A stretch of 64,000 bases of DNA from an uncultured Acidobacteriota bacterium. Lineage in GTDB: Bacteria; Acidobacteriota; Thermoanaerobaculia; Multivoradales; UBA5704. A program made the position numbers and the translations under genes. The stretch spans positions 1,861,200-1,925,199 of the forward strand of contig OY969112.1 in assembly GCA_963698025.1 (NCBI GenBank), given 5' to 3'. Position 1 is the first letter of the stretch, and each line of letters starts with the position of its first letter. Shown in pieces: positions 1,615 to 64,000 of this stretch. The notes beneath the pieces are model-generated. The model ran no database searches. It had not been told where the DNA came from and saw only the letters and a list, made by a program, of their open reading frames with translations.

Positions 1615-2255
1615 GTCGGGGTTCGCAGACCAAGGCTGGCCCGGTCGGACCGGTGCACCTAACGGAAACGGCCGGAGTTCCGAGGATGCCTGGAAAGTAG
1701 AGGTAGCCCTGCAGGAGCGGCGGTTGAGCAGCCTGGACTTCAAACCCAAGGTAGGGCCCAGCCCGATCCCCTCAAGCTTCCCAAGAGGGTGGCTTATCGC
1801 GGAGGATCGATTGCCCTTCGGGCCTGAATGATTCTGCGACTGGGCGATTGCTACGGACCGAGTTACGCCTCCGCTAGGCCAGGCGTTGGGGCCGTCTCCA
1901 AGGCTTCCCAAGCAAGGGTCGAGATCTTTGACAAGCGAAGTCCCTGGGCTGGTGAACAGGTGGGGCGTTACTTCTGCCCTCCCTCTGTCCACTACATATT
2001 ACAAGGCGACTACCCCGCATTCCTGCTTATTGACGGGTAGCGCTACAGGCTGTAACATTGTTTCTTCCATAAGAGAAACGCGTTGTGTTGACCTCGCTTA
2101 CCACCATATCTCTGCCTTACGGCGAGATGCAGTTATAGCGGAAGCTGCCTAACAGACAACCCAAGCGGTCGGCTTAACGTCAGTCATAAGATTATCCGTA
2201 CGAGAGGGCACACTCTTTGCACAAACCACGCATTCGCCACTCTGAAAGGAAATTA

Positions 2256-5200
2256 TTGATCCCGCATATCAAACTTTATGCGGCGATTCTGCTACTCGCT
2301 CTTCCAGCATTGGCACAAACGAGCGGCCTCCCTACATTTCCCAAGCGCTCTGGATATTGGATGAAGCCTATCTCAGAGCAGCTCGGCGTGTGCGATGGCG
2401 GCTCAGTGGCTTGGGCGCAAAGATCGGGGGATCAATATTCAAAGGAACTCGAACTCGTCGACAACGTCGGACGAGTGGTTAACCGATGGACTTTCCCCCT
2501 CTCAATTCGGGATTTTTATCGCACATCTAATTGCACCACTTCATGGGTTCTTTCACGAGATCGTCGCCATATCTTCATTGTAAACAGCTTAACCGATCGG
2601 GAACCCATACCTCTCGCCAATGGGAATGGGATAGATGAAGTACGGCGACTCATTCCAGCTGACGACGGGAGCTTCGCCTGGGTCTATTTCGAAACCCGCA
2701 AACCAGACATCGCTATTGCCATTCGGAGCCCTCAGGGAATCGTATTGCAGGAGATATCAGGGATTCCACCCGACCTGGAGAGTCAAGATTATTCCGCCAT
2801 AGCACAAGGTAAACGACTCCTGGCTATACCCGTCAGAGGAGTAGGGATCTACTTCATAGAGGCGTCGGGTGCCCACAACATTAGCAAGAAAGATCTTTCT
2901 AATGTTTATAGTACTAACACAGGAGAATTGGCTTGGCTTATACCCAGGCTCGATAAGGGCGTATATCTCGTCGATGGCACCGGTCGCCCTCTTAATCAGG
3001 GCGCGCCTTTACTGAAAGATGAGGACGTAGTCCAGGTCTACTCGCGTTTCCGCGAGAGAGACTCGTATGCCTGGGTGCGAACCCAGAGCGATAGACTGTA
3101 CGCATTTGCGCCGATAGAAACTCCTCAAGGTTGGGCGATTCGGCCTCTCAACCATGGACATCCGGTGGCAATCGGCGCACAAACTCTCGCGGTAGATCTC
3201 GCCAGAGTAATTGGTTCAGGGCGAGTGGCTTGGGTGACTTCACAAAGCCGCTTTGCTCCGCCAGGTGCATGGGGAGATATTTATCGTGTCGAGGTCCAAG
3301 GAGACGACATAGCAGTGTCTTCGGTGCCGCGTCAGTACTTTGAAGGTAAGTCCGTCAACACTCTTTTTTGGGACCTTGAAAACCCTTGGCGCTTCTGGGC
3401 CAGGAGCCCAGACCTGTGCCTCTATGAAGTAAGACTACATCCCCAGGGAAAGTCTGAACCTGGTACGGAAGCAGAGCCTGCAAAGGTCTTTGACCACCAC
3501 TCTTCCTGTGTGCTTGTGGAGCAAATTATACCGAGCGGAATTCCTAGTCGATATTGGATCAATGCGACCCCCTCATATTATCTCATGGGGCCAGCCAACG
3601 ACATAACTGAAGCCATAGTCAGCCTGGGGCATGCCAGATTGAGCCTCAAGACCCCCAGAGGGCATCGACTACGCTTCGCAATGCGTGAAGGCTCTTCAAT
3701 CCATGCCAGCCTGAACTGGCCTACCCGTGATGACCATCTAATGGACATGAACCCTGAGACGTCTCGGGAGCGTCCGCGGATCCATATAACGTTCCTTGAC
3801 CCTAGGGATCATCAATCCACTCCTCGAGCCGAAGGTGAAGGGTTCGCAGACAAGGGAGAAGCCAGCATCCTTCTACACACGAACGGAAGCTCACATTGGA
3901 ATGAGACCTATGATATTCAACTTGAATATCACGATCCGCAGACACTGACCAACTTTCGGATACTTTGGCCTGGAGTGACTCTCGCTCCAACATTATACGA
4001 GTTGGTTACTGCGAGCCCTTACTGGAAAGCCCTGTGGCTCCTCGCTCTTCCCATCTTTGCACTACTGCTCGCCATTAATAAGAGTTGGCGGGTTCGACGC
4101 TGGATTCCAGTAGCCGTATCAGCAATTGAGGTACTTATAGCTAGCCGACTCCCAGAACCGATCAAGACAACCCCCTTAGAATTACTTAGCGTCGCAGCAT
4201 GCTGCTCCCTTACAATGCTCCTAGCAGGCCTAGCCTCTCCAGCTTTATTCCGTGAGCTTGCATTGATTCAGCCGTTCCGTCTTCTAGTACCTGCCGCGCT
4301 TCAGTTGCCGCGCTTGCGGCGCCGGGTATGGAAGTCCTACGTAAAAAATGTCCGCATGCTTCTGCAAATTTTTCGAGAAGACGCAAGTAACGAGACCTAC
4401 GTCCCTCTGGCCACTTCGGTAGTTGGCAGCCGACCACCACAAGGATCTTCGGTCGGCTCACAAGCTGACGTGAAAAGCATCGTAACTGTTCTCTCCGCTA
4501 AAGATCCACAACACAGAGCTACTATCCTGATAGAGGCTCCAGGTGGCCGTGGTAAGAGTGCACTCTGGAACGAGCTTTTGGCACGCTGCCTGGATGCTTT
4601 TGAGAATGATCCGCTATGCCCTCTTCCAGTGATTGGTGACCCTCGATGCAGTACTGTAGAGTCGATGGTTGAGTCTGGACTTGGCCGTTTTGGCATCTCG
4701 CCGGACATAACTGCGGCGCAACTAAAGTCCGGCGAGTTCGTTGTCTTCATTGACAATTTGAGCAGCTGTGACCTAGCACCAGCTGATCTTGAGACCTTCT
4801 TTAGAGCTGGCGGGGATAAAACTCGGCTCTGCTTAACCAACCGACCTGATAAAGAATGGCGCGGGCCCGTACGCAGGGCTGACACGTGGATCATTGTTGA
4901 ACCGGAACGACTATCTGATTCTTCTATTTGGGGCTTCGTCGACAATTATGCAATTACTGATGCCATACGAATGAATCGAGATGCAGAGTCCTATACCAAA
5001 CTGGTCAGAGAGAAAGTGGAGAAGTTCCTACCCATCTGCCGCTCAGAGGATGGTTCTTACCTACCACTCTTGGTTCGGCTTTGCACATTGGCCATCGAGC
5101 GTGATATTAGTTCTATTGATGATATTTATCTGAGCGCATTAAGGCGCTTATTAACCCGAAAAGATGCCATGAGCAATCTCGATGTCGAGCGGGTTCTCGT

Positions 5201-5843
5201 CGAAGCAGAGCAAATTGGCATTGAAACCTACTGGCACGAGCACGATCGGCTCTTCCGGTTCGAGCGCACAACACCGGAGCGTACGCAAATAATGCGAGAA
5301 CTGCTCCAAGCAGGCGTAGTAGTGGGGGCAGATCGCACCAAGAGGCTAAACGAGGAGCCCAAACAAGTTCGTTTCTTTCACGACTCTGTTCAGTCCTATC
5401 TTGTTGCACGAGGTCTCCACCGGGCGGGCGATTGGGAATGCTTTCTCCAAGCCGCTGGCGATCCATTCTTCTGCCGAGCGGCTTCGGATTTTATCGGTGG
5501 CACAGGGTCAGAATTATTTCAGATGTGTCTTTATGTTTTTGAAGCAAGCCGTGTTCGCCGACATCTGATCGAAGATTTGCTGAGTTGGGCGGGATGCTAT
5601 TGGGCCACCCTTTCGATTGATGATGTACTCGTCGGATTAACCGAGGAATCGCAAGCCGCAGTTGAAAGGCGTATCTCCACCCTAGTCGGAGCAGGTGAGT
5701 ACCTGCGGATTGCCGTGGAGGTGGTTGCTGCAGAGGACATGCAAGAAGACGGCACTGTTCGACTTGGTCGACTTTATGCAAAGCTTGCCCCAAAAGTGTG
5801 GCAACGAACTTGCGTTGAGGAGAATCGCAACGAAGTTGCTTAA
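2256..5843 (+). CDS. Large membrane-anchored STAND-class (NACHT/NB-ARC-like) P-loop NTPase with an N-terminal periplasmic domain; low-GC, probably horizontally acquired
   Basis: The most plausible start is TTG 2256, with an AGGA ribosome-binding site 5 nt upstream. Alternative starts are TTG 2217 and ATG 2359. A signal peptide (IPHIKLYAAILLLALPALA-QTSG) leads into roughly 560 aa of periplasmic sequence. Two to three transmembrane helices follow (WLLALPIFALLLAI ... SVAACCSLTMLLAGLA). The cytoplasmic part has a Walker A motif APGGRGKSAL, a Walker B motif FVVFIDNL and a TRLCLTNR sensor-like motif, then about 500 aa of helical sequence. GC content is markedly lower than the flanking DNA. Confidence 0.8.
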   Translation: MIPHIKLYAAILLLALPALAQTSGLPTFPKRSGYWMKPISEQLGVCDGGSVAWAQRSGDQYSKELELVDNVGRVVNRWTFPLSIRDFYRTSNCTTSWVLSRDRRHIFIVNSLTDREPIPLANGNGIDEVRRLIPADDGSFAWVYFETRKPDIAIAIRSPQGIVLQEISGIPPDLESQDYSAIAQGKRLLAIPVRGVGIYFIEASGAHNISKKDLSNVYSTNTGELAWLIPRLDKGVYLVDGTGRPLNQGAPLLKDEDVVQVYSRFRERDSYAWVRTQSDRLYAFAPIETPQGWAIRPLNHGHPVAIGAQTLAVDLARVIGSGRVAWVTSQSRFAPPGAWGDIYRVEVQGDDIAVSSVPRQYFEGKSVNTLFWDLENPWRFWARSPDLCLYEVRLHPQGKSEPGTEAEPAKVFDHHSSCVLVEQIIPSGIPSRYWINATPSYYLMGPANDITEAIVSLGHARLSLKTPRGHRLRFAMREGSSIHASLNWPTRDDHLMDMNPETSRERPRIHITFLDPRDHQSTPRAEGEGFADKGEASILLHTNGSSHWNETYDIQLEYHDPQTLTNFRILWPGVTLAPTLYELVTASPYWKALWLLALPIFALLLAINKSWRVRRWIPVAVSAIEVLIASRLPEPIKTTPLELLSVAACCSLTMLLAGLASPALFRELALIQPFRLLVPAALQLPRLRRRVWKSYVKNVRMLLQIFREDASNETYVPLATSVVGSRPPQGSSVGSQADVKSIVTVLSAKDPQHRATILIEAPGGRGKSALWNELLARCLDAFENDPLCPLPVIGDPRCSTVESMVESGLGRFGISPDITAAQLKSGEFVVFIDNLSSCDLAPADLETFFRAGGDKTRLCLTNRPDKEWRGPVRRADTWIIVEPERLSDSSIWGFVDNYAITDAIRMNRDAESYTKLVREKVEKFLPICRSEDGSYLPLLVRLCTLAIERDISSIDDIYLSALRRLLTRKDAMSNLDVERVLVEAEQIGIETYWHEHDRLFRFERTTPERTQIMRELLQAGVVVGADRTKRLNEEPKQVRFFHDSVQSYLVARGLHRAGDWECFLQAAGDPFFCRAASDFIGGTGSELFQMCLYVFEASRVRRHLIEDLLSWAGCYWATLSIDDVLVGLTEESQAAVERRISTLVGAGEYLRIAVEVVAAEDMQEDGTVRLGRLYAKLAPKVWQRTCVEENRNEVA

Positions 5844-6133
5844 ATCACTCCGGCACCCGGGGCAGAAAGATCCAGTGTGAAGGCTCATGGGAAGCCAATC
5901 ATGGATTCCGGTCCTGCTCCAGCTCTCAGCCTGCCAGGTTCCGTGGTGGCTCAAGGGCCAACACCGTGCGGGCAAGGGTACATTGTCGCATTGAACCAGG
6001 GAGTACGTAACGCTACAGACGCGGCGGGAGGACACCCCAACGCTGAACGGCAGAAGAACGGTCAGCCAAAGGGAGTCCTCCTGAGCGCGATCAGATTATT
6101 TTCACTCATCACGATCATAGGCTCGGTGAGTGA

Positions 6134-6250
6134 CAGAGCCTGCAGCATGTGACCGACGGTAGCTATGTTAATAGCCATCTTGACGACACGGTTTATCGTC
6201 CCGGCCCAACAGAGTATCATTGTGCGACCTACGACTGCGGGAACGCCTGA
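6134..6250 (+). pseudogene. Decayed paralog of the RiPP precursor at 9211: the core peptide is retained and the leader is degraded
   Basis: It encodes ...VTDGSYVNSHLDDTVYRPGPTEYHCATYDCGNA. Precursor A encodes ...VTGGAVNSYINDTVYRPAPTEYRCATDGCGYA. There is an in-frame stop immediately upstream and no leader or start codon. A conserved downstream module of about 90 bp is shared with the 9377-9470 region. Confidence 0.45.
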
Positions 6251-6399
6251 TCCTCCTGCCGGGAGTGGACCGGTGACCCACGAATAGCTCCCTTCCGATC
6301 CGGCGAAGGTCGTGGATCGGCGAAACGCCCCTCCTCCGACCTTCGCCTCTGTCACGAATTCGATCCCTGCAAGGATTAGAGCGTCCCTGCCGTCGCGGC

Positions 6400-8016: not shown

Positions 8017-8441
8017 AGCCGTCCACGACCGCCGACGGGGCGGGGTGGTGGCGGTCCTCTCGGAGGACGGAAAGTCGCTCCGCAACATCGGCTTCAAAGA
8101 GGTCTCGATAGACACCGAAGAGGCGTGGCGCGAGTACCCCGTCGACTCGCCGGTGCCGTCGCCGAGGCCGCCAGGCTCCGCGAGCCGATCATCGTCACTA
8201 CGGTCGAGGAGCGCCGGAGGTAACCCCTTCCATCCATGCCCCTATCTCTCTATTTCGCTGCTTCCTTAGCATGCTAGCGAATGATGTACCTGATCAGGTA
8301 TTTGTTATAGACTTAGCGGCTGCCAAGAAATCAAAGCAAAGGAGCCAGGGGAGTCTCCCCAGCTTGCGAATCTCCTGAGCTCGGGATGAGGCCGAGAAGG
8401 CTACACAATCGATATAAATAAGAGAGGTTGGGGGCAAAATC

Positions 8442-9097
8442 ATGCGCTCACGATTACCGCAAGATGGACGCTTTACCGCCTATCCTTCGGCTTTTCTGGC
8501 CATCTTCCTGCTGACCCTGGCGCTGCCCGCGGCCGCGGCCGAGACGTGGTTGCCGGGACCGAACCCGCGGGCAGCGCGGCGATCTTGAGCGGCGGCGCCA
8601 CCCCGACGCCGAGCTTTCTCGCCGACCGGCCAGGCGCCTACATCGCCGAGCTCGTGGTGACCGATGAAGACGGCCAGGCCAGCAATGTCGATCAGGTTAC
8701 GGTGTCCGGCAACGGAGCCCCGACGGCGGGAGCGCAGGCGAGCGACACCCAGGTCAAAGTGGGGACCTCCATCGTGCTCGACGCGACGAGCAGCGCCGAT
8801 CCCGAGAACGATTCGCTGACGTATCAGTGGACGCTCTCCAAGGCGCCACCCGGCAGCGCGGCGATCCTCACCCAGGCCGGGACCGCGCTGGCAACCCTGG
8901 TCCCCGACGTCCCGGGCGACTACGAGGTGACCCTCACCGTCAGCGATTTCCTGGGTGCCGGCACCCCCGTGCGCCTGGCGATCACCGCAGCCCCTATCCT
9001 CGCCGCGGAGATCTCGGTCACCTCGAAGGAGGGAGCCCTGCTTTTTGCCACGCTCCTGACGATCGCGGCTCTGGGCCTGCTGCGCCGCGCGGGCTGA
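8442..9097 (+). pseudogene. Frameshifted secreted PKD/Ig-like repeat protein
   Basis: A signal peptide (MRSRLPQDGRFTAYPSAFLAIFLLTLALPAAAAE) is read in one frame and stops at about 8588. PKD-like repeats (DSLTYQWTL...PGDYEVTLTVSD) run in another frame from 8546 to 9097 and end in a hydrophobic tail (LLFATLLTIAALGLLRRAG). Confidence 0.45.
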
Positions 9098-9210: not shown

Positions 9211-9375
9211 TTGAAGAAGCAGACGAAGATCCAGAAGCTCGTGCTCAAGAAGGAAACGATGGTCAGCTTGCAGGATGTGACCGGCGGCGCTGTTAATAGC
9301 TATATCAACGACACGGTTTATCGTCCCGCCCCGACAGAGTATCGGTGTGCGACCGACGGCTGCGGGTACGCCTGA
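9211..9375 (+). CDS. RiPP / bacteriocin-like precursor peptide A with a double-glycine leader (54 aa)
   Basis: The ribosome-binding site AAGGAGG is 7 nt upstream of a TTG start. The leader is LKKQTKIQKLVLKKETMVSLQDVTGG and the core is AVNSYINDTVYRPAPTEYRCATDGCGYA. The leader motif is shared with the peptides at 54515 and 57872. Confidence 0.6.
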   Translation: MKKQTKIQKLVLKKETMVSLQDVTGGAVNSYINDTVYRPAPTEYRCATDGCGYA

Positions 9376-9501
9376 TCCTTCAGGTGGCCGCCTCCGGATA
9401 GTTCCTTCCGATCCGGCGAAGGTCGTGGCAAGAGCCGGCGAATCGCCCCCTCCGACCTTCGCCTTTATCCACCCTTCCGAACGGCAGGCCGCGAGGGGCC
9501 G

Positions 9502-10017: not shown

Positions 10018-10171
10018 GGTTCTCCTCCCATGGGGTTGATATCAGGGCATTTTACCATCGTTGCCGCAGAGCGGCCGGGCGCGCTTGACAGGCGAGCCCG
10101 TGGCCTCATATAACCTCATGGTTACGTAACCTGCCGGTTCAACCGGTAAGAGACGGGCAAAGGAGATCGAC

Positions 10172-10552
10172 ATGCTGGGAAACAGAGACGCGGTCGCGAC
10201 CGTCGCGGTGAAGGACCTCGGAACGGCGAGGCGGTTCTATGAGGACAAGCTCGGCCTGAAGCCGGCCCAGGACGAAAGCCACGGCGTGATCACCTACAAG
10301 AGCGGCGGCACCTCGCTCGTCGTCTACGCGTCGCAGTTCGCGGGGACGAACCAGGCCACGAGCGTCACCTGGAACGTCGGCGGCGATTTCGACGACATCC
10401 TGCAGTCCCTCCGCTCCAAGGGTGTGACCTTCGAGCACTACGACGGCCTGCCGGGCCTCACCCGCGAGGGGGACGTTCACAGGGCTGGCGACCTCAAGCT
10501 CGCCTGGTTCAAGGACCCGGACGGCAACATCCACCATCTGATCAGCGTCTAG
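10172..10552 (+). CDS. VOC (glyoxalase / bleomycin-resistance) family protein
   Basis: The fold signature is VOC-like: AVATVAVKDLGTARRFYEDKLGL ... DPDGNIHHL. Confidence 0.85.
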   Translation: MLGNRDAVATVAVKDLGTARRFYEDKLGLKPAQDESHGVITYKSGGTSLVVYASQFAGTNQATSVTWNVGGDFDDILQSLRSKGVTFEHYDGLPGLTREGDVHRAGDLKLAWFKDPDGNIHHLISV

Positions 10553-10562
10553 GAGGCCGTCG

Positions 10563-10967
10563 ATGAACATGAATCGAGCCTTGGAGGCCACGTACTTCCT
10601 GCTTCGCGTCGTGGCGGGTTTGCTGTTTTTCCAGGCGGGCGGCTTGATCCTGTTCGGCTGGTTCGGCGGCATGCCCGGCTCGGCGGGCGCCGCACCGCCC
10701 CTGATGTCCCAGACGGGTATCGGCGGGGTGCTGGAATTCTTTGGCGGCCTCGCGATCCTGCTCGGTCTCTTCACCCGGCCGGTGGCGTTCATCCTGTCCG
10801 GCATGATGGCGGTCGCGTACTGGCAGTTCCACGCGCCCAATGGCGGCTGGCCGGTTCAGAACCAGGGCGTGCCAGCCGTCCTGTTCTGTTTCATCTTCCT
10901 GTACATGGCAGCACGGGGCGCCGGCGACTGGAGCCTCGACGCATGGCTCCGGCACAAGCGGGATTGA
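10563..10967 (+). CDS. DoxX family membrane protein
   Basis: It has four hydrophobic helices and DoxX-like motifs (RVVAGLLFFQAG, FFGGLAILLGL). Confidence 0.85.
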   Translation: MNMNRALEATYFLLRVVAGLLFFQAGGLILFGWFGGMPGSAGAAPPLMSQTGIGGVLEFFGGLAILLGLFTRPVAFILSGMMAVAYWQFHAPNGGWPVQNQGVPAVLFCFIFLYMAARGAGDWSLDAWLRHKRD

Positions 10968-10986
10968 CCCAAGAGGAGGACGAGCG

Positions 10987-12195
10987 ATGAGCACCGGAGG
11001 ACTCTCCAAGGCGCGGCTCGCCCGCATGCACGACGTCATGGCCGGCCATGTCGAACGCGGCGGAGTGCCCGGTCTCGTCACGCTGGTCAGCCGGCGGGGC
11101 GAGGTGCACGTCGATGCGATCGGCAGGATGACGGTGGACGGCGGCGATCTCATGCGCCGCGACACGATCTTCCGGATCGCCTCGCTGACCAAGCCGGTCA
11201 CGGCCGTGGCGGCGATGATCCTGGTGGAGGAATGCAGGCTGCGGCTGGACGAGCCGGTGGACCGGCTGCTGCCCGAGCTGGCCGGCCGCAGGGTCCTCAA
11301 GCGGCTCGACGGGCCGCTGGACGACACCGTGCCCGCGAAGCGGCCGATCAGCCTGCGCGACCTGCTGACCCTCCGCATGGGCATCGGCCACATCATGGCG
11401 CCGTCGAGCGCCTATCCCATCCGGAAGGCCCTCGACGAGCTGCGGCTCCTTCCGGGCCCCCCGCAGCCGCAGTCTTTACCGGGGCCGGACGAGTGGATCC
11501 GCGGCGTCGGGACGCTGCCGCTGATGCACCAGCCGGGCGAGAGGTGGATGTATGACCTGGGGCTGGACGTGCTGGGCGTCCTGATCGCGCGCGCCGCGGG
11601 CCAGCCGCTGGAGACATTCCTGCGCGAACGCCTCTTCGAGCCGCTCGGCATGAAGGACACGGGGTTTTATGTGCCGGCGGAGAAACTCGACCGGTTCCCG
11701 GACTGCTACCGGGGCCATCCCGCGACCGGGGCGCTCGAAATCTACGACGCCGCCGCCGACAGCCAGTGGAGCCGCCCGCCCGCCTTCCCGGCCGGCAGCG
11801 GCGGCCTGGTCTCGACCGTCGACGACTACCTGGCCTTCTGCCGGATGATGCTGGCGAAGGGAAGGCATGGCGAGCGCGAGCGCATCCTGTCCCGCCCGTC
11901 GGTCGAGCTGATGACCGCCGACCATCTCACCCCGGAGCAGAAGGAAGGGATGGACATCTTCTTCGGAGACGGCAGCGGCTGGGGATTCGGCATGGGCGTC
12001 GTCACCCGGCGCGACGATCTGGCGGCGGCTCCCGGACGGTTCGGCTGGACCGGCGGCCTCGGCACGTCCGGCTATTCGGACCCCCGGGAAGAGATGATCG
12101 GGATCCTGATGACCCAGCGCCTGATGGATTCCCCGCAGCCGCCGCCCGTCTTCCTCGACTTCTGGACCTCGGTCTACCAGGCGATCGACGACTGA
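10987..12195 (+). CDS. Serine hydrolase of the beta-lactamase / class C family
   Basis: The start is ATG 10987, with a GAGGAGG ribosome-binding site. The S-x-x-K motif is present in IASLTKPVTAVAAMILVEE. Confidence 0.85.
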   Translation: MSTGGLSKARLARMHDVMAGHVERGGVPGLVTLVSRRGEVHVDAIGRMTVDGGDLMRRDTIFRIASLTKPVTAVAAMILVEECRLRLDEPVDRLLPELAGRRVLKRLDGPLDDTVPAKRPISLRDLLTLRMGIGHIMAPSSAYPIRKALDELRLLPGPPQPQSLPGPDEWIRGVGTLPLMHQPGERWMYDLGLDVLGVLIARAAGQPLETFLRERLFEPLGMKDTGFYVPAEKLDRFPDCYRGHPATGALEIYDAAADSQWSRPPAFPAGSGGLVSTVDDYLAFCRMMLAKGRHGERERILSRPSVELMTADHLTPEQKEGMDIFFGDGSGWGFGMGVVTRRDDLAAAPGRFGWTGGLGTSGYSDPREEMIGILMTQRLMDSPQPPPVFLDFWTSVYQAIDD

Positions 12196-12206
12196 TCGAC
12201 GGACGG

Positions 12207-13646
12207 CTAAGGGCGGTCGCCGACCGGCAGGCTGACGAGGAAGCGGGTGTCGCCGGGGCGCGATTCCAGTCTCATCTCGCCGCCGTGCCGGCCGACCACG
12301 ATGCGGCGGGCGATGTCGAGGCCCAGCCCCGAGCCCTCCCCCATCGGCTTGGTGGTGAAGAAGGGCTCCCAGATCCTCCCCAGCAGCTCGGGGGGAATGC
12401 CGGGGCCGTCGTCGCCGATGACCACCTCGACCTGGTGGTCGACGCGGCGGGTGCGGACGGTCACCCGCCCTCCCGGCGCGACGGCGTCGAGAGCGTTGTC
12501 GAGCAGGTTGGTCCAGACCTGGTTGAGCTCGCCGGCGAAAGCCGGGACGGCGGGCAGGTCCGGATCGTACTCGCGGATCACCTTCACGGCTTTGGCCTTC
12601 GCCTTGTGGCCCAGCATGGTGAGAGTGCTGTCGAGAGCGCGGTGGAGGTCGGTCTCCGCTTTCTCGGTCAGCTCGCGGTCCATGTGGGAGTACTCCTTGA
12701 CCGAGCCGACCAGGTCGGAGATCCGGCGCGCCGCGTTCTCCATCTCGCCCAGCAGCAGGTGGAGGGCGGCGCCCGACTCCACCCACGGAATCGCCGCCGG
12801 CAGGACGGCGGCGGGCACCCCCGCCGCGAAGCGCTCGAGGTCGCCGGCGGTCATCCCCGTGGCCACGAAGGTGGGGGCGAGACGCCAGGCGCCGGCCACC
12901 TGCCGTTCCTCCAGCCAGTCGCCGAGCTCGCTCTCGCGATCCGCCTGGGCCAGCGGATCGAGCGCCGCCGTAACCTCCAGGCTCGCGCCCTGCCCCGAGG
13001 TTTCGTGCAGCCGGCAGAGAGCGTCCATCTGGGCGGGCTCGACCCCCTGGCGGATCAGCGCGGCGGTCAGCGACGGCAGGGCGGCGAGGCGCTGACGGAG
13101 CTCGGCCACCGCGCGGCCCATCGCCGAGGCGGGGTTGTTAAGCTCGTGCGCCAGTCCGGCGGACAGCTTGCCGAGCGCCAGCAGCTTCTCGTTCTGCTGC
13201 TCGGCGCGGGTGGTCTCGCGCGCCCGGTCGGTCATCACGCCGATCAGCCGCGGCTCCAGCACGGGGATGCGCTCCAGCATCTCGCCGAACAGCGTCGAGG
13301 GGATCGTGGCGACCCGGGTGGGACCGGCGGCGCGGATGGTGGCACCCCACTGCCGCAGGCGCGAGAAGGGGAGCAGGCCGGTGATCTCGCCGGTCCGGGC
13401 GATGAAGGTGCGGGTGGCCGCGGAGCCCTTCTCGCCCCGCCCCCGCAACTCGCCCGAGAGGACGATGGACATGCGTTCCGCGGGCTCGCCTTCGCGCGAG
13501 ATCACGTCGCCGTCGGCCAGATGGAGCTCTTCGGCGTGCTCGGCGAGCCAGTCGATCTCCTCGTCCGCCAGGTCGGCCAGCAGCGGCACGCCGCGCAGCG
13601 CCTGCCGCAGCGGCGCCTCGCCGATGCTCCCGGTCACGGCTGCCAC
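12207..13646 (-). CDS. Sensor histidine kinase with an N-terminal cyclic-nucleotide-binding domain
   Basis: A cNMP-binding-like N-terminus is followed by the H-box HELNNPASAMGRAV and a C-terminal HATPase motif (GSGLGLDIARRIVVGRHGGEM). Confidence 0.85.
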   Translation of the reverse strand: MAAVTGSIGEAPLRQALRGVPLLADLADEEIDWLAEHAEELHLADGDVISREGEPAERMSIVLSGELRGRGEKGSAATRTFIARTGEITGLLPFSRLRQWGATIRAAGPTRVATIPSTLFGEMLERIPVLEPRLIGVMTDRARETTRAEQQNEKLLALGKLSAGLAHELNNPASAMGRAVAELRQRLAALPSLTAALIRQGVEPAQMDALCRLHETSGQGASLEVTAALDPLAQADRESELGDWLEERQVAGAWRLAPTFVATGMTAGDLERFAAGVPAAVLPAAIPWVESGAALHLLLGEMENAARRISDLVGSVKEYSHMDRELTEKAETDLHRALDSTLTMLGHKAKAKAVKVIREYDPDLPAVPAFAGELNQVWTNLLDNALDAVAPGGRVTVRTRRVDHQVEVVIGDDGPGIPPELLGRIWEPFFTTKPMGEGSGLGLDIARRIVVGRHGGEMRLESRPGDTRFLVSLPVGDRP

Positions 13647-55130: not shown

Positions 55131-55700
55131 ATGACTGTGAATCGACGTTCCCTTCCGTGCGCCCTCGCCCTGGCTGCCGCCGTCACCCTGACACCGGCGG
55201 CGGTGCGAGCCGATGCCGCCGCCACGGCTTCCAAGGTGCCGGCAACCGGCACGGCCGCCCCGGACTTCAGTCTCACCACCAACGAGGGCAAGCCCGCCAG
55301 CCTGAAGGACTATCGGGGGCAGTGGGTGGTGCTCTACTTCTATCCCAAGGATTTCACCGGGGGCTGCACGCTCGAGGCGCACAACTTCCAGCGCGATCTG
55401 GCGAAGTACGAGAAGGCTCACGCGGTCATCCTCGGCGTCAGCGTCGACACCGCCGACTCCCACAAGAGCTTCTGCGCCAAGGAGGGCTTGAGCTTCAAGC
55501 TCCTGTCCGACCCCGACGCGCAGGTCTCGACCCAGTACGGCTCGGTGATGGCGTACAACGGAGCCAAGCTCTCGGCGCGGAACACCTTCCTCGTCGACCC
55601 CGAGGGGAAGATCGTGAAGGAGTTCGTCGGCGTCCACCCGGGCAGCCACAGCGAAGAGGTCCTCGCCGCCCTGGCCACCCTGCAGCGCCACGGATCCTGA
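55131..55700 (+). CDS. Secreted peroxiredoxin (Bcp / PrxQ-type, AhpC/TSA family)
   Basis: A signal peptide is followed by FYPKDFTGGCTLEAHNF, which carries the peroxidatic Cys. Confidence 0.9.
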   Translation: MTVNRRSLPCALALAAAVTLTPAAVRADAAATASKVPATGTAAPDFSLTTNEGKPASLKDYRGQWVVLYFYPKDFTGGCTLEAHNFQRDLAKYEKAHAVILGVSVDTADSHKSFCAKEGLSFKLLSDPDAQVSTQYGSVMAYNGAKLSARNTFLVDPEGKIVKEFVGVHPGSHSEEVLAALATLQRHGS

Positions 55701-55924
55701 TTCCACGTTTTCAGATTGCCAGCCCCAGAGTATCGCCCCTTCGGGGCTGGCCCCACTCCCCCAACCCCCTCTCACCCATCCTCCCCCCCCACCCACTGGG
55801 AGAGAGGGGGCTCGAAGAAGCTCTCTCAGACTAAAATGGGAGAAGAGGGCGGGGTGATGAGGGCCAGTGCCGGGCCGCCGCCGCCGCCGTGCCCTGGCCT
55901 CGTCGCACGACGGACCGCGAAACA

Positions 55925-56385
55925 GGCCTTAGAAGGCGTTCATATATACACTTCGTCGATTTTTATATACGCGAGCCTCACCTGGGCATCGGCGGAGGTC
56001 TTCTCTATATACGAATTGCTCCTGGATATATACAAAACACCGCCAATGAGGGCGGCAACCCCGATTTTTGGCGAATCAGCCTCTCCGGAAAGCTCTCCAA
56101 GGTCTCTGGATATATATAAAGCGCACAAAAATAGTGTTCCCGGAGGCTTGCCGACCTTTTTTTGAGGCATCTCTATATATTCGGAGCAGATTTGTATATA
56201 GGATTGGCTGCTTGGACCCCTTCGAGGGGGACTCTGTATATATTTTTTTCCGTTTTATATATAAAAAGAGGCGCCGGAATCCCTGCGAGCCCCTCAAAAG
56301 GCCGAGTCAGGGCTGCCGGAGCTCTCTCCAGGACAACTCCGTATATATTTTCCTGAGCTTTATATATAAAAAAGGCTCGTGGAAT
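55925..56385. repeat. AT-rich TATATA-box array (at least 11 copies), including two ~45-nt palindromic units (GTATATATTTTT..CC...TTTATATATAAAAA)
   Basis: TATATA(C/T) cores occur at about 55933, 55962, 56010, 56027, 56107, 56175, 56198, 56237, 56262, 56344 and 56366. The surrounding genome is about 70 % GC. No credible ORF is present. Confidence 0.7.
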
Positions 56386-56659
56386 GCTCGCGACGCCCCA
56401 TGCGAGCCTCCGAGTGCCGCCTCACCGCCTTCGGCTTCGCCGAATGAGTGCCCGGCCCCTCTTCCCCCGGGAACTGACCGAGGAGATGGCGGAGATCTTC
56501 CGGGCCCGGGACGTCCACCGCGAGACCCTGGCCGCCCTCGCCGTCTTCCAGGCCGCCGCCGCCCTCGACGTCGCCACCGCCGACCTGGCCCGCGATCTCG
56601 CGGCCTACCTCACCCGCGCCCGTCTGGACCCCGAACTGCGCTTCGAGCGGGAGCGCTGA
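56384..56659 (+). pseudogene. C-terminal fragment (about 70 aa) of the zf-HC2/TPR gene family
   Basis: LTEEMAEIFRARDVHRETLAALAVFQAAAALDVATADLARDLAAYLTRARLDPELRFERER is nearly identical to the C-termini of the proteins at 58492 and 60191. The preceding 19 aa are unrelated. Confidence 0.5.
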
Positions 56660-62027: not shown

Positions 62028-62376
62028 ATGCCGGTGACGGACAGCTACCAGCGTCGTTGCGCGGCACGGGAGGGAAGGCCCTGCCGGTCCTGGACGCCGA
62101 CCACATCCCGCCGGTCGGCAAAGGGGGGCCAGCACCGCCTCGACAACAGCCTCCTCCTCCGCACCGACGTCCACCGCCTCTACGACAAGTCACCCGGACG
62201 GCCGCTTCCTCGTCAGCCGCCGCCTCAAGGACGACTTCGACAACGGCGAGCCCTACATGCCCTTCCACGGCCAGCGCATCTGGATGCCCGGAGACCCCCT
62301 GAGCCAGCCGAACCGGGAGGCGCTGGAGTGGCATGCGGAGGGGGGCTTTTGGGGTGAGGGACGCTTTGTCTTCTGA
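62028..62376 (+). pseudogene. Frameshifted duplicate of the HNH nuclease gene
   Basis: It is about 90 % identical to 57196-57540, but a 13-nt deletion at about 62190 and an earlier indel break the frame. The homology block starts at 61937. Confidence 0.55.
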
Positions 62377-62543
62377 GTCCACTCCGAACCGCATGGCACT
62401 TCGCTCTTCCCGCTCCCTCTCCCGCCCCCGTCCCTTCTGGTTCCTGTGGCTTGGGCACCTCCTTGCTTGCCGCTTCTCTATAGGCTAGGATTAAGAAACC
62501 GTTAGATAATTGCTGTTTAGGACAAGTTTCCCAAGCGGGGTTC

Positions 62544-63716
62544 ATGCTGGGGTATCGATTGGACGTTCATAGCACTGTGGTCGAGACTAGATCCGAGGAA
62601 AGAGCGGAGCGTGCTATCGCAGCTCTCGCAGCCGACTGGGAACGCCAAGAAGGCGTGCTGCGGAGATCTCAAGTCGAGAGATTAATCTTGAAGCGTTGTC
62701 TCTCGGTTGAGGAGGGAGTATACGTCTTTAAAGGCTTAGCCCGGCGGGGTATCGAGCTGGAAAACCCGGCCCGCAGCGATTCCACGAACGATGACAAGGC
62801 AACGTATCAAGGGTCCGAACAGAAGGGCGGAATTCTTGCAGAAGAGTTCTTGCCTTATTATTTCTCGCAACGCCTCTTATCTGCTCAAGAGGAGATCGAC
62901 CTCGGTCGAACAATACAGCTTGGTATCCTCGCACGGGCCGACCTCGAATCCGGCTTCGACAGCGACGAGCTTCGTAGCTTCGTCGCTCTAGGTGAGCGCG
63001 CACGGAACCGCCTCATCGAGGCTAATTTGAGGCTTGTCTTTTCAATGGCCCAAAAGTTCAAAGGGCAGACTGGCCTCGACTTAGGAGATCTCGTCCAAGA
63101 AGGCACTCTTGGACTACTCCGTGCAGCAGAACTCTTCGACCCTGACCTTGGCCTTAGGTTCTCGACGTATGCAACGCATTGGATTCGCCAAGGAATATGC
63201 AGGGGCGCGGATAGCTTCGGAGAGACTATTAGGCTACCAGTCCATCGAATGGATAGCATTCGCAAACTTAGACGCGCAAAACGAATCATTTCCATTGAGC
63301 TTGGCCGCCAGGCCACTATTCGAGAGATCGCCGAGGCCCTCGACTGGACACCTGAAAGAGTCGCCTACATTCAGTACTTATCCTCCGAACGGATCGTCTC
63401 GCTAGAGACACCCCTAGATAGCGAGAATAACTTGGTCTGGGGCGATACGATCGAAAGCCCAATACCCAACCCAGAGCAGCTATACATAGAGTCCGAACTC
63501 AGATACTTGATAGGCAACCTTCTCGACACCCTTACACCTCGTCAGCGAGCGGTTCTAATACGTCGATTTGGCCTGAGCAATGGCCACGAAGAGACGCTGC
63601 AAAGGATCGGCGATGACTTTTGTGTCTCTCGGGAGCGGATACGGCAGATCGAGACCAAGGCCCTGAAACGCGCGGCACCGCGAGCCAGATCAATGGGCAT
63701 CGAGCAGTTTCTTTAA
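62544..63716 (+). CDS. Sigma-70 family RNA polymerase sigma factor (regions 2, 3 and 4) with a ~110-aa N-terminal extension; lower GC than surroundings
   Basis: Region 2 is [13 protein letters not shown] ... [19 protein letters not shown], with [10 protein letters not shown] nearby. Region 4 is [23 protein letters not shown]. Confidence 0.85.
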
Positions 63717-63737
63717 CTTGGCAAGGCGGAGGACGGA

Positions 63738-64000
63738 ATGAGCGATAGTGAATATCATGCGACCGTGCGCTTCCTGGATTGGCTCGAGTCTCGCGTTATC
63801 GCCGCCGGCCGAGGCGATAACATTTTAACCTCCGATAATGACCCTTCGGGACGCTTCTGGCTCGGCCGGCTCGCGTCCGAGGAAAAGGTCGCCCGCATGG
63901 CGAGCGGCGACCGTGGCGAACGACTGGAACCATGTGCTGTTGGAATTAGGATTCAACCTGCCGGAATTGATCCCTGGAAGTTTGAAGTCAGAGTATTGGC
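63738..64000 (+). CDS. Hypothetical protein (5' partial at window end), low GC
   Basis: The ribosome-binding site is AGGCGGAGGA. It reads MSDSEYHATVRFLDWLESRV and runs off the end of the window. Confidence 0.4.
   Translation, partial: MSDSEYHATVRFLDWLESRVIAAGRGDNILTSDNDPSGRFWLGRLASEEKVARMASGDRGERLEPCAVGIRIQPAGIDPWKFEVRVL

Follow-up and report, generated by a model that had tools for sequence, protein, structure and literature searches.

The question raised by this locus is how a single long gene of atypical composition comes to lie within the GC-rich DNA of the window (meaning here the whole stretch of 64,000 nucleotides that was analysed), and what kind of protein it might encode. The answer favoured here, to which a rough probability of 0.55 may be attached, is that the locus is a horizontally acquired island carrying one functional gene, and that this gene encodes a receptor of the NLR/STAND type, a single chain spanning the membrane, that would act as an outside-in switch.

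Between positions 1830 and 6150 the GC content is 52.4%, as against 68.8% for the remainder of the 64-kb window (z = -7.3), and every other 4.3-kb stretch of the window reaches at least 63.7%, so that the sharp fall over some 4.3 kb described in an earlier note on this DNA is fully borne out. The comparison of GC and tetranucleotide usage with the flanks, which that note had proposed, also sets the island apart: in tetranucleotides it correlates with the remaining window at 0.55, where host segments give 0.83 ± 0.06. A maximum-likelihood analysis puts the change points at 1920 and 6220, at most about 90 bp away from the earlier limits, and the island may be given as 1920–6220 (no strand; about 52% GC against 69% for the host), 1830–6150 being equally defensible. 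Low GC arising simply from amino-acid composition can be rejected, because the drop is greatest at third codon positions, where GC is 0.49 in the island gene and roughly 0.85–0.95 in host genes. On its atypical composition and codon usage, the island is horizontally acquired DNA. It resembles other genomic islands in this sharply atypical composition and in the occurrence of its gene in unrelated contexts elsewhere, relatives of which adjoin a relaxase or sit between integrases (one copy lies next to NikA/MobC and a relaxase, another is flanked by two tyrosine recombinases). It differs from them in comprising only about 4.3 kb with a single intact gene, as had been supposed from the sequence, and in lacking the usual accessories: no tRNA or Rfam match was found in the window, no integrase-like ORF adjoining the island, and no repeats (hence no direct repeats) flanking it, in keeping with the earlier remark that neither integrase nor tRNA was visible.

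The right-hand limit abuts a truncated peptide-precursor gene (6134–6250, + strand), which had been taken for a remnant of a paralogue of the gene starting at 9211. This proves correct: positions 6137–6370 are about 85% identical to 9265–9480, a segment that takes in the core peptide (85% identity over 98 nt) and a downstream hairpin. The reference for the comparison is the intact 54-aa precursor gene at 9211–9375 (+ strand), whose GG-type leader resembles the class I lanthipeptide leader NF038153 at E 6e-4, short of the curated cut-off. The remnant encodes the core peptide only, without a leader peptide and without the GG cleavage motif (GG having become DG), and there is an in-frame TGA upstream at 6131–6133; the homology begins at SLQ(H/D)VT and does not extend beyond the interior of the leader-coding part. 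There are just two precursor copies in the window. Insertion of the island, or recombination accompanying it, would have removed the 5' part of the paralogue, and for the host genome this would represent a recently acquired single-gene island that destroyed one of two precursor copies on arrival. Simple insertion with target duplication was considered as a mechanism and rejected, since nothing of the precursor paralogue is present on the left side and flanking repeats are absent.

How common the gene appears to be depends strongly on how it is sought. A word-indexed protein search, using either the single protein or a 30-sequence alignment, returned only the protein itself and one relative at 66% identity; this badly understates the family, so that exhaustive HMMER searching was needed, which yielded at least 249 cluster representatives (at 50% identity) sharing the architecture described below, distributed among Archangiaceae, Acidobacteriota and metagenome contigs. 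The database records of eleven members call them simply “hypothetical protein”, and a scan of 30 full-length members gave no Pfam match over the ectodomain; with at least 249 clusters involved, this amounts to an annotation gap. A trough in GC content confined to the gene is seen in six high-GC hosts, with different neighbours each time (trough against host GC: L001, 52 vs 65%; L002, 66.5 vs 73–75%; L023, 61 vs 72–73%; L024, 60 vs 74–75%; L025, 60 vs 71–77%), and in the window the low GC is not shared by neighbouring genes. Similarity to L001 and L002 is limited to the gene itself, in the case of L001 stopping at the stop codon. Copies with a GC content matching that of their host sit in contigs of 43–56% GC, which are plausible donors.

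The gene (2256–5843, + strand) encodes 1195 amino acids from a TTG with GAAAGGA upstream of it; the long open reading frame spans 2217–5843, and an alternative TTG start at 2217, which is where the database copy P0001 begins, would give 1208. A weak sigma-70-like promoter match lies within the island at 2030–2058 (+ strand; TTGACG-17-TAACAT, 9/12, a match to the consensus only). It might be supposed that such a gene is simply carried along by this genome, a foreign sequence in decay on an island without current function, and the foreign codon usage, the weakness of the promoter match, the loss of a Walker B glutamate (see below) and the splitting of the L002 copy over several reading frames could all be read in that way. 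This is nevertheless thought very improbable. The reading frame runs for 1195 codons without interruption, and comparison with the 66%-identical copy (L001) gives a dN of 0.18–0.31, far under a dS that is saturated; the Glu-to-Ser change is found also in the intact L001 copy and is therefore older than the split between the two, and errors of metagenome assembly may explain the disrupted frames of L002. The intact reading frame, and a dN so well below dS, indicate that the island gene is functional.

Turning to the product, the N terminus (residues 1–21; 2256–2318, + strand) has by hydropathy the character of a signal peptide, ...LLLALPALA followed by QTSG, and of 70 full-length relatives 44 likewise start with a hydrophobic segment. 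The signal peptide suggested earlier, with ALA before Q at its end, agrees with this. The beta-rich N-terminal region of about 560 aa is also supported: an AlphaFold model of the first ~570 residues (pLDDT 87) gives a beta-propeller of nine blades and, after it, an Ig-like beta-sandwich. The propeller (residues ~30–446; 2343–3593, + strand) carries nine G..AW-type blade motifs and is predicted to be extracytoplasmic; the Ig-like domain (residues ~452–577; 3609–3986, + strand) has the propeller on one side and the membrane on the other, both domains (predicted to be exported) sitting directly N-terminal of the transmembrane segment. The best structural matches to this ectodomain model are non-enzymatic scaffolding propellers, weaker ones including DPP4 and virginiamycin B lyase, and the propeller sensor of BT4673 (PDB 3OTT, 3VA6) is among the top Foldseek matches.

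The membrane region (residues 589–665; 4020–4250, + strand), located by hydropathy, begins with TM1 at 589–607, followed by RVRRW, continues with a weak hydrophobic segment at 617–631, and ends with a third hydrophobic segment at 643–665, directly after which comes a conserved Arg-rich juxtamembrane stretch. The earlier estimate of two to three transmembrane helices agrees with this, there being about three segments of which the middle one is weak. Arg/Lys-rich stretches thus lie C-terminal of the first and last hydrophobic segments (589–607 and 643–665), and these features are common to the family. Judged by hydropathy and the positive-inside rule, which form the whole basis of the topology given here, the signal peptide would export the propeller and Ig domain, and approximately three helices would cross the membrane, leaving the module that follows in the cytoplasm.

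That module (residues 690–1195; 4323–5840, + strand) comprises a juxtamembrane helix, NBD, HD1, a winged helix and HD2, the last being the C-terminal end of the protein with no effector domain or repeat sensor attached. The AlphaFold2 model of the cytoplasmic half (pLDDT 91.2, pTM 0.88) has the NBD-HD1-WHD-HD2 fold, and a Foldseek search of the PDB with this model ranks NLRC4, NOD2 and NLRP3 highest (E 3e-11 to 1e-8 over 430–550 aligned columns). The motifs from which a STAND/NACHT protein had originally been proposed (GGRGKSAL, FVVFIDNL and TRLCLTNR) are all present, and conservation among 132 relatives is striking. Walker A (4536–4559, + strand; APGGRGKS, residues 761–768) has G764, G766 and K767 invariant in 132/132, and the aspartate of Walker B (4737–4766, + strand; FVVFID833NLSS837) is equally invariant (132/132); the arginine of the sensor-1 strand (4827–4847, + strand; LCLTNR863P) is found in 131/132, and the histidine of the winged-helix motif (5370–5408, + strand; RFFH1042DSVQSYLVA) in 130/132. 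The profile searches that the earlier note recommended gave a divided result. The window protein itself passes none of the curated family models of Pfam, NCBIfam or PADLOC (in Pfam there is no hit even at E ≤ 1), and a PDB sequence search with it alone produced nothing useful; the cytoplasmic domains of its relatives, on the other hand, match Pfam NACHT (PF05729) in 17 of 34 cases (best 2.6e-9), with weak matches to nSTAND_NTPase5 (PF25199) in 19/34 (best E 5.9e-06) and NB-ARC matches in 3/34, and a family profile run against the PDB finds the NB-ARC domain of MLA13 at E 0.005. The modelled fold, together with the conserved motifs and the relatives' Pfam matches, indicates that the cytoplasmic half is a NACHT-clade STAND NTPase, which upholds the earlier assignment; the structure prediction suggested as a check for a P-loop fold gives a complete NACHT module (pLDDT 91). 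From fold and motifs together a nucleotide-dependent oligomerising switch would therefore be predicted. One feature is unusual: the family Walker B consensus is DG[LV][ST]E, with Glu at +4 in 119/132 relatives, and the second acidic residue that follows the Walker B Asp in the DGxDE-type motif of NACHT proteins is missing from the window protein, which has Ser837 at that position (DNLSS), as does its closest relative, P0002. These two proteins may bind nucleotide yet hydrolyse it poorly.

Set beside known systems, the protein shares with NLRC4, NOD2 and NLRP3 and with bacterial bNACHT proteins the NBD-HD1-WHD-HD2 arrangement, Walker A, the Walker B Asp, the sensor-1 Arg and the winged-helix His. 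It differs from them in falling under every curated HMM threshold, in having Ser and not Glu at Walker B +4, in carrying a propeller, an Ig domain and a membrane bundle N-terminal of the NOD where these have CARD, PYD, TIR or nuclease domains, and in having no LRR, TPR, WD40 or FGS sensor after HD2. PF25199 (“Novel STAND NTPase 5”), despite its weak matches in 19/34 relatives, does not match the window protein; among the relatives NACHT gives the stronger best hits, and the structure search favours NACHT. No paper describing PF25199/nSTAND5 was found in the literature searched, which returned irrelevant results only. With the BT4673 hybrid two-component system of Bacteroides there is a likeness of layout, a propeller ectodomain outside the membrane preceding a cytoplasmic signalling part. 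However, BT4673 has two seven-bladed propellers and the window protein one with nine blades, neither it nor 30 relatives gives the Reg_prop or Y_Y_Y Pfam matches of that type of system, and a NACHT switch takes the place of histidine kinase and response regulator.

The nearest parallel in overall plan is with membrane-embedded bacterial NACHT proteins. A class of these with “TM regions”, following Kaur et al. 2020 and 2021, has been suggested to respond to signals within the membrane or in the periplasm (Kibby et al., bioRxiv 10.1101/2022.07.19.500537); in that account the TM segments are listed among C-terminal sensor types or as inserted in the NACHT domain, and a large folded ectodomain goes unmentioned. 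The order signal peptide, 550-aa ectodomain, TM helices, NACHT distinguishes the window protein from that class as described, though some overlap may exist. The claim that this architecture lies outside described families accordingly survives in part: an exported propeller joined to a transmembrane NACHT module was not found described in the literature searched, but with at least 249 clusters sharing it the layout is far from unique.

Evidence as to what the separate parts might do comes from syntenic Archangium orthologues, in which identity is 55–84% for the ectodomain, 87–97% for the NACHT module and 82–95% for the membrane segment, the corresponding dN/dS ranges being 0.24–0.67, 0.08–0.31 and 0.09–0.36. 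Of all parts of the protein the ectodomain is thus the least conserved, and it is also the only large domain outside the NOD. Its faster evolution fits a sensor role, although, since dN/dS over the whole domain is below 1, it could reflect relaxed constraint and not diversifying selection; the conservation of the membrane segment suggests a role beyond anchoring. In the transmembrane receptor favoured here, the ectodomain would be a sensor that binds some variable ligand in the periplasm or outside the cell, the conserved segment in and beside the membrane would relay the resulting change to the NACHT module, and the latter would exchange nucleotide and then oligomerise, which is how other STAND proteins behave. 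As to output, it is more probable that the conserved transmembrane bundle would perturb the membrane on clustering, the alternative being that the oligomer might recruit an unlinked partner; this step is a guess, because neither an effector domain nor a conserved neighbour was found. It counts against the sensor reading that, in STAND proteins of the canonical kind, what lies N-terminal of the NOD is the effector and not the sensor.

Were the sensor reading right, the family would combine a fast-evolving propeller sensing the outside with an NLR-type nucleotide-gated oligomerisation switch, carried as a mobile single-gene cassette among soil bacteria. That this constitutes a new class of receptor is put forward tentatively, at somewhat less than even odds. 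NLR/STAND switches have been studied as intracellular sensors in animals, plants, fungi and bacteria, and to our knowledge the NLR-type oligomerisation switch has so far been known only as an intracytoplasmic sensor. A family with its sole candidate sensor outside the cytoplasmic membrane would extend the NLR/STAND principle to transmembrane signalling; it would be a transmembrane NLR reporting extracellular events, with a logic like that of surface pattern-recognition receptors, and would offer a tractable model, made up of one protein, in which to study how a conformational change close to the membrane lifts the autoinhibition of NACHT.

A more specific role can be imagined from the distribution. 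In a species-level GTDB scan using the winged-helix motif, 18 of 21 matches were to Archangiaceae, some of these genomes having two copies (a scan with ectodomain patterns gave no matches), and synteny there is conserved. Coupled with the reported enrichment of STAND proteins among multicellular prokaryotes (Kaur et al. 2020, PMC7159879), this might point to a receptor for cell-cell or kin recognition, or for development, in social soil bacteria, whose polymorphic ectodomain would read a surface molecule of neighbouring cells while the NACHT module set a threshold; in the ectodomain of the Archangium orthologues both dN and dS are raised, a pattern that a polymorphic receptor locus with old alleles or recombination would be expected to show. 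However, the taxonomic picture is biased, the genome scan having used one exact peptide pattern, there is no linked partner or ligand gene, and transfer as a foreign cassette into Acidobacteriota-like genomes better fits a portable, self-contained function, so that this proposal must be considered distinctly doubtful.

A connection with phage defence, at which the earlier note hinted, overlaps with the transmembrane receptor already described and differs from it in naming a phage trigger and cell death as the output. The protein would then be an abortive-infection NLR of the bNACHT/Avs type, in which a phage cue, sensed either at the envelope or within the cytoplasm, causes the NACHT module to oligomerise and the N-terminal TM helices to breach the membrane as the effector. 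Bacterial NACHT proteins, some with TM regions, are known to protect against phage (Kibby et al., bioRxiv 10.1101/2022.07.19.500537), the gene behaves like a mobile cassette of its own, its ectodomain evolves fast, and there are a few neighbours from conflict systems (Imm26 in L003, an RHS protein in L026). Against this, the window protein matches no PADLOC-DB family at E ≤ 1, and it lacks both a recognised enzymatic N-terminal effector and the C-terminal repeat or FGS sensor of antiphage bNACHT and Avs proteins; no relatives were found in the plasmid, phage and IMG/VR collections. Gene context also fails to support the hint, as none of some 25 neighbourhoods (a small sample, inspected without statistics) is recognisable as a defence island, their content being housekeeping, envelope or mobility genes, and the Archangiaceae copies occupy a conserved housekeeping neighbourhood (PAS histidine kinase, 5'-3' exonuclease, globin, YaiI, S9 peptidase). 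An anti-phage function is for these reasons rated unlikely, though less so than the other alternatives.

The same neighbourhoods bear on the idea that signalling runs from inside to outside, the cytoplasmic NTPase driving or gating the exported propeller as an envelope machine, for instance in the binding or processing of an envelope polymer. Propellers of this kind do occur in peptidases and lyases, as the weaker matches to DPP4 and virginiamycin B lyase recall, and some copies lie near envelope genes (KdtA, LpxK, a lipid A acyltransferase and PMT_2 in L024, PAP2 in L002, an HtrA-like protease in L021). Yet no catalytic family was found to match the ectodomain, whose best structural matches are to scaffolds, and for an enzyme it would be unusual that this is the least conserved part; STAND modules, moreover, are switches and not motors, as Leipe et al. 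in 2004 reportedly argued. The neighbourhoods have nothing in common, and the search for a conserved partner gene turned up synteny only within the Archangium group. The envelope machine must accordingly be rated a long shot, and the outside-in receptor is retained. At the other loci, the unannotated neighbours of the gene show no kinship to one another or to the family, and one of them resembles a spurious antisense ORF.

The low-GC island contains only one long open reading frame, at 2217-5843, which bears out the earlier note's description of it as a single-gene island. The database copy of the product (P0001, 1208 aa, from a contig of 7.05 Mb) starts at 2217, a TTG codon at 2256 is preceded by a Shine-Dalgarno-like GAAAGGA, and a signal-like N-terminus results from either start. 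Searched as a single sequence, this protein has no match in Pfam, PADLOC, NCBIfam or the PDB, and a word-indexed search returned only the protein itself and one relative of 66% identity (P0002, on a 4.7-kb contig). Exhaustive searching with HMMER yielded 249 cluster representatives at E <= 1e-3 (151 of them at E <= 1e-30), mostly 1100-1350 aa in length; the part common to all these matches begins near residue 545 and extends to the C-terminus, and the N-terminal 550 residues were covered only for roughly the dozen nearest relatives, or for 84 when a broader profile was used. The database records of eleven members were looked up, and all either gave no name or read "hypothetical protein".

An AlphaFold2 model of the cytoplasmic half, made from an alignment of 34 cytoplasmic domains, has a pLDDT of 91.2 and a pTM of 0.88, and its top Foldseek matches among PDB entries are without exception NACHT modules, namely those of NLRC4 (E 3e-11), NOD2 and NLRP3. 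Because these alignments span essentially all 506 residues of the half, the protein ends with HD2, with neither a repeat sensor nor an enzymatic domain after it. Among the 34 relatives, Pfam recognises NACHT in 17 (best 2.6e-9), nSTAND_NTPase5 in 19 and NB-ARC in 3, and a PDB search with the family profile brings up the NB-ARC domain of MLA13 (E 0.005). The motif residues are likewise conserved across 132 relatives: G764, G766 and K767 of Walker A and D833 of Walker B in every one, the sensor-1 arginine R863 in 131 and the winged-helix histidine H1042 in 130. The assignment to the STAND/NACHT proteins, originally made from short motifs, is supported. The sole departure among the key residues concerns the glutamate four residues after the Walker B aspartate, which is kept in 119 of the 132 relatives and is Ser837 (4764-4766) in the window protein; P0002 also has Ser, and judging from this substitution the subclade formed by the two may bind nucleotide but hydrolyse it inefficiently.

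In the N-terminal half, a separate Ig-like sandwich (residues ~452-577) follows the nine-bladed propeller. The ectodomain that these two make up also matches 1L0Q, a YVTN-propeller-plus-PKD S-layer protein (by Foldseek and by sequence profile, the latter with E 4e-4), and the extracellular domain of BT4673, a Bacteroides hybrid two-component system (Foldseek / profile search). Hydropathy places a first transmembrane helix at 589-607, with RVRRW after it; a weaker hydrophobic segment lies at 617-631, and a third, with an arginine-rich stretch after it, at 643-665. Given a cleaved signal peptide, hydropathy and the positive-inside rule predict three helices with the N-terminus outside and the C-terminus inside, and this is the only arrangement that puts the NTPase in the cytoplasm; export of the ectodomain, too, is inferred. 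Among 70 full-length relatives, whose ectodomains have a median length of 610 residues, an N-terminal hydrophobic segment is present in 44, and between the ectodomain and Walker A two or more hydrophobic segments occur in every one of the 70.

By fold and motifs the window protein belongs in the NACHT clade, and it may be expected to work like an NLR. It does not fit the layout known for the antiphage bNACHT and Avs proteins, in which the effector is N-terminal and the sensor C-terminal. Among the classes of bacterial NACHT protein listed by Kibby et al. (bioRxiv 10.1101/2022.07.19.500537) is one with "TM regions", and for some of its members sensing of signals in the membrane or periplasm has been suggested; that paper places these regions either with the C-terminal sensor types or within the NACHT module, as insertions. 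The order signal peptide-propeller-Ig-TM-NACHT was not found in the main text of that paper, nor in the main text of Kaur et al. 2020/2021 or of the 2026 STAND survey (PMC13581612). In its arrangement the ectodomain resembles that of the Bacteroides hybrid two-component sensors, but without any sequence relationship to them.

Evidence as to which end senses comes from syntenic orthologues in Archangium, which are 87-97% identical in the NACHT module and 82-95% in the membrane region, as against 55-84% in the ectodomain. The selection analysis consisted of pairwise counting only (Nei-Gojobori dN/dS by domain), and gave 0.24-0.67 for the propeller, 0.24-0.56 for the Ig-like domain, 0.09-0.36 for the membrane region and 0.08-0.31 for the NACHT module, with dN reaching or exceeding dS in some 60-codon windows. 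A ligand-binding surface that tracks a variable target would be expected to diverge in this way; the pattern falls short of proving positive selection. In most of nine orthologue pairs (from the Archangium loci L010-L019) dS itself is higher in the ectodomain than in the NACHT part, in some pairs about twofold (e.g. 0.39 vs 0.16), which suggests recombination or long-lived alleles there; the recombination would possibly be between ectodomain alleles.

Computation establishes the domain architecture, the family, the intact nucleotide-binding motifs, the foreign origin of the gene and the faster evolution of the ectodomain. Outside-in signalling is the favoured direction, because the ectodomain both evolves fast and is the sole globular part of the protein outside the NOD. 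By analogy with STAND proteins, a ligand bound by the ectodomain would release autoinhibition, and the NACHT module would exchange nucleotide and oligomerise. As to output, one speculative proposal is that oligomerisation clusters the transmembrane bundles and so perturbs the membrane, and another, also speculative, is that the oligomer recruits an unlinked partner. Membrane perturbation is favoured since neither an effector domain nor a conserved partner gene was found and since conservation is strong across the membrane and juxtamembrane part.

Turning to the origin of the gene, the window island is foreign. The sharp fall in GC reported over some 4.3 kb, from about 69% to about 52%, holds on measurement (52.4% in 1830-6150 vs 68.8% elsewhere in the window, z = -7.3), the lowest value among all other 4.3-kb stretches of the window being 63.7%. 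Third-position GC is 0.49 in the island gene and 0.82-0.97 in host genes, and comparison of tetranucleotides with the rest of the window, which the earlier note had called for, also sets the island apart, with a correlation of 0.55, where host segments give 0.83 +/- 0.06. When two change points are fitted by likelihood, the borders fall at 1920 and 6220. No repeats were found flanking the island, no small ORF at its edges has a family match, and the 64-kb window contains no tRNA or Rfam match. One such ORF, of 91 aa, occupies 5877-6152 in the low-GC tail between the stop codon of the gene and the precursor remnant; it lacks a family match, L001 (the locus of the 66%-identical copy) shows no counterpart after its gene, and it is probably non-coding island filler. 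A second low-GC patch (62250-63750, GC 53-56%) may be another small foreign island; its one ORF (62544-63716, + strand, 390 aa) looks by eye like a sigma-70-family factor. More modest dips, to 0.58-0.60, occur at 55250-56500 and 8200-8600.

The same GC trough, limited to the gene, in a high-GC host and with a different neighbourhood each time, is seen in the closest relatives: gene and flanks have 52% vs 69% GC in the window, 52% vs 65% in L001, 66.5% vs 73-75% in L002 (a 59%-identical copy), and 61% vs 72-73%, 60% vs 74-75% and 60% vs 71-77% at the further loci L023, L024 and L025. Contigs of 43-56% GC carry family members of near-host GC and are plausible donors. Similarity of the window to L001 and L002 is limited to the gene, and in L001 stops at the stop codon. 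Between the window and L001 dN is 0.18-0.31 and synonymous sites are saturated, which implies that the gene is under purifying selection and that these two copies are not recent offspring of one insertion. The simplest reading is that a self-contained gene has been acquired repeatedly and independently. The L002 copy (10058-13472) is broken over several reading frames, reflecting either a pseudogene or indel errors of metagenome assembly.

A pattern scan of species-representative genomes gave 21 loci, including the Acidobacteriota MAG with L002 (59% identity) and one Thermoanaerobaculia MAG. Eighteen are in Archangiaceae (Archangium, Cystobacter, Hyalangium and Vitiosangium, some genomes having two copies), where the gene has host-like composition (third-position GC ~0.9) and lies in a syntenic housekeeping block with a PAS histidine kinase, 5'-3' exonuclease, globin, YaiI, a DUF4184-like membrane protein and an S9 peptidase. 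Outside the Archangiaceae the loci inspected, a small sample taken from exact-pattern scans, have no common neighbour: they variously adjoin, among others, a He_PIG/ice-binding surface protein, an SH3_3 protein, Imm26, an MFS transporter, an HtrA-like protease, PAP2, formate-dehydrogenase/Nuo-like genes, lipid A and Kdo genes, an RHS protein and MacB, and in the window a 2Fe-2S subunit, a DUF2911-TPR protein and a beta-lactamase-family protein. Co-occurrence with phage-defence islands, raised as a possibility beforehand, was not borne out, there being no recognised defence system in any inspected neighbourhood. Plasmid, phage and IMG/VR collections yielded no relatives. In L025 (7089-14598) genes for NikA/MobC, a 1277-aa relaxase and an S26 peptidase come directly after the family member, and the locus resembles a piece of a conjugative or mobilisable element; in L033 (4279-11569) another member lies between two tyrosine-recombinase genes.

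At the right edge, 6137-6370 is homologous to 9265-9480, with a 98-nt core of 85% identity and then a common hairpin region downstream. The peptide encoded by the intact gene at 9211-9375 (+ strand) is 54 aa long and has a Lys-rich leader with VTGG at its end; this leader resembles the class I lanthipeptide leader NF038153 of NCBIfam below its cut-off (E 6e-4; 19.9 bits, cut-off 22). The leaderless remnant noted at the island edge is real: homology begins at SLQHVTDG (GG having become DG), directly downstream of an in-frame TGA (6131-6133), and the 9211 gene, the only other copy in the window, provides the intact reference. Simple insertion of the island into a precursor paralogue is ruled out, for no left-hand fragment of the paralogue is present; a deletion or an illegitimate recombination accompanied the event. 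No maturation enzyme or transporter for the 9211 peptide was recognised among the adjacent ORFs. Upstream of that gene, a 183-aa ORF (8546-9097) is like the C-terminal repeat region of sortase-dependent M36 metallopeptidases, and has a hydrophobic, sorting-like C-terminal tail.

The non-coding stretch upstream of the island (940-1620) holds nine of the ten CATTCCCC motifs in the window (2.2 expected by chance for the whole of it), clustered at 971-1301 on both strands and partly spaced by 20-21 bp. Beyond this cluster lie two overlapping, divergent, near-perfect sigma-70 promoters, at 1382-1410 (+, TTGACA-17-TATTAT) and 1434-1406 (-), and a terminator-like hairpin with a T-run at 1577-1612. 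A structured RNA of ~200 nt, without an Rfam match, is predicted from the region (fold z = -2.4), and the CATTCCCC cluster may be a regulator-binding array driving this putative sRNA.
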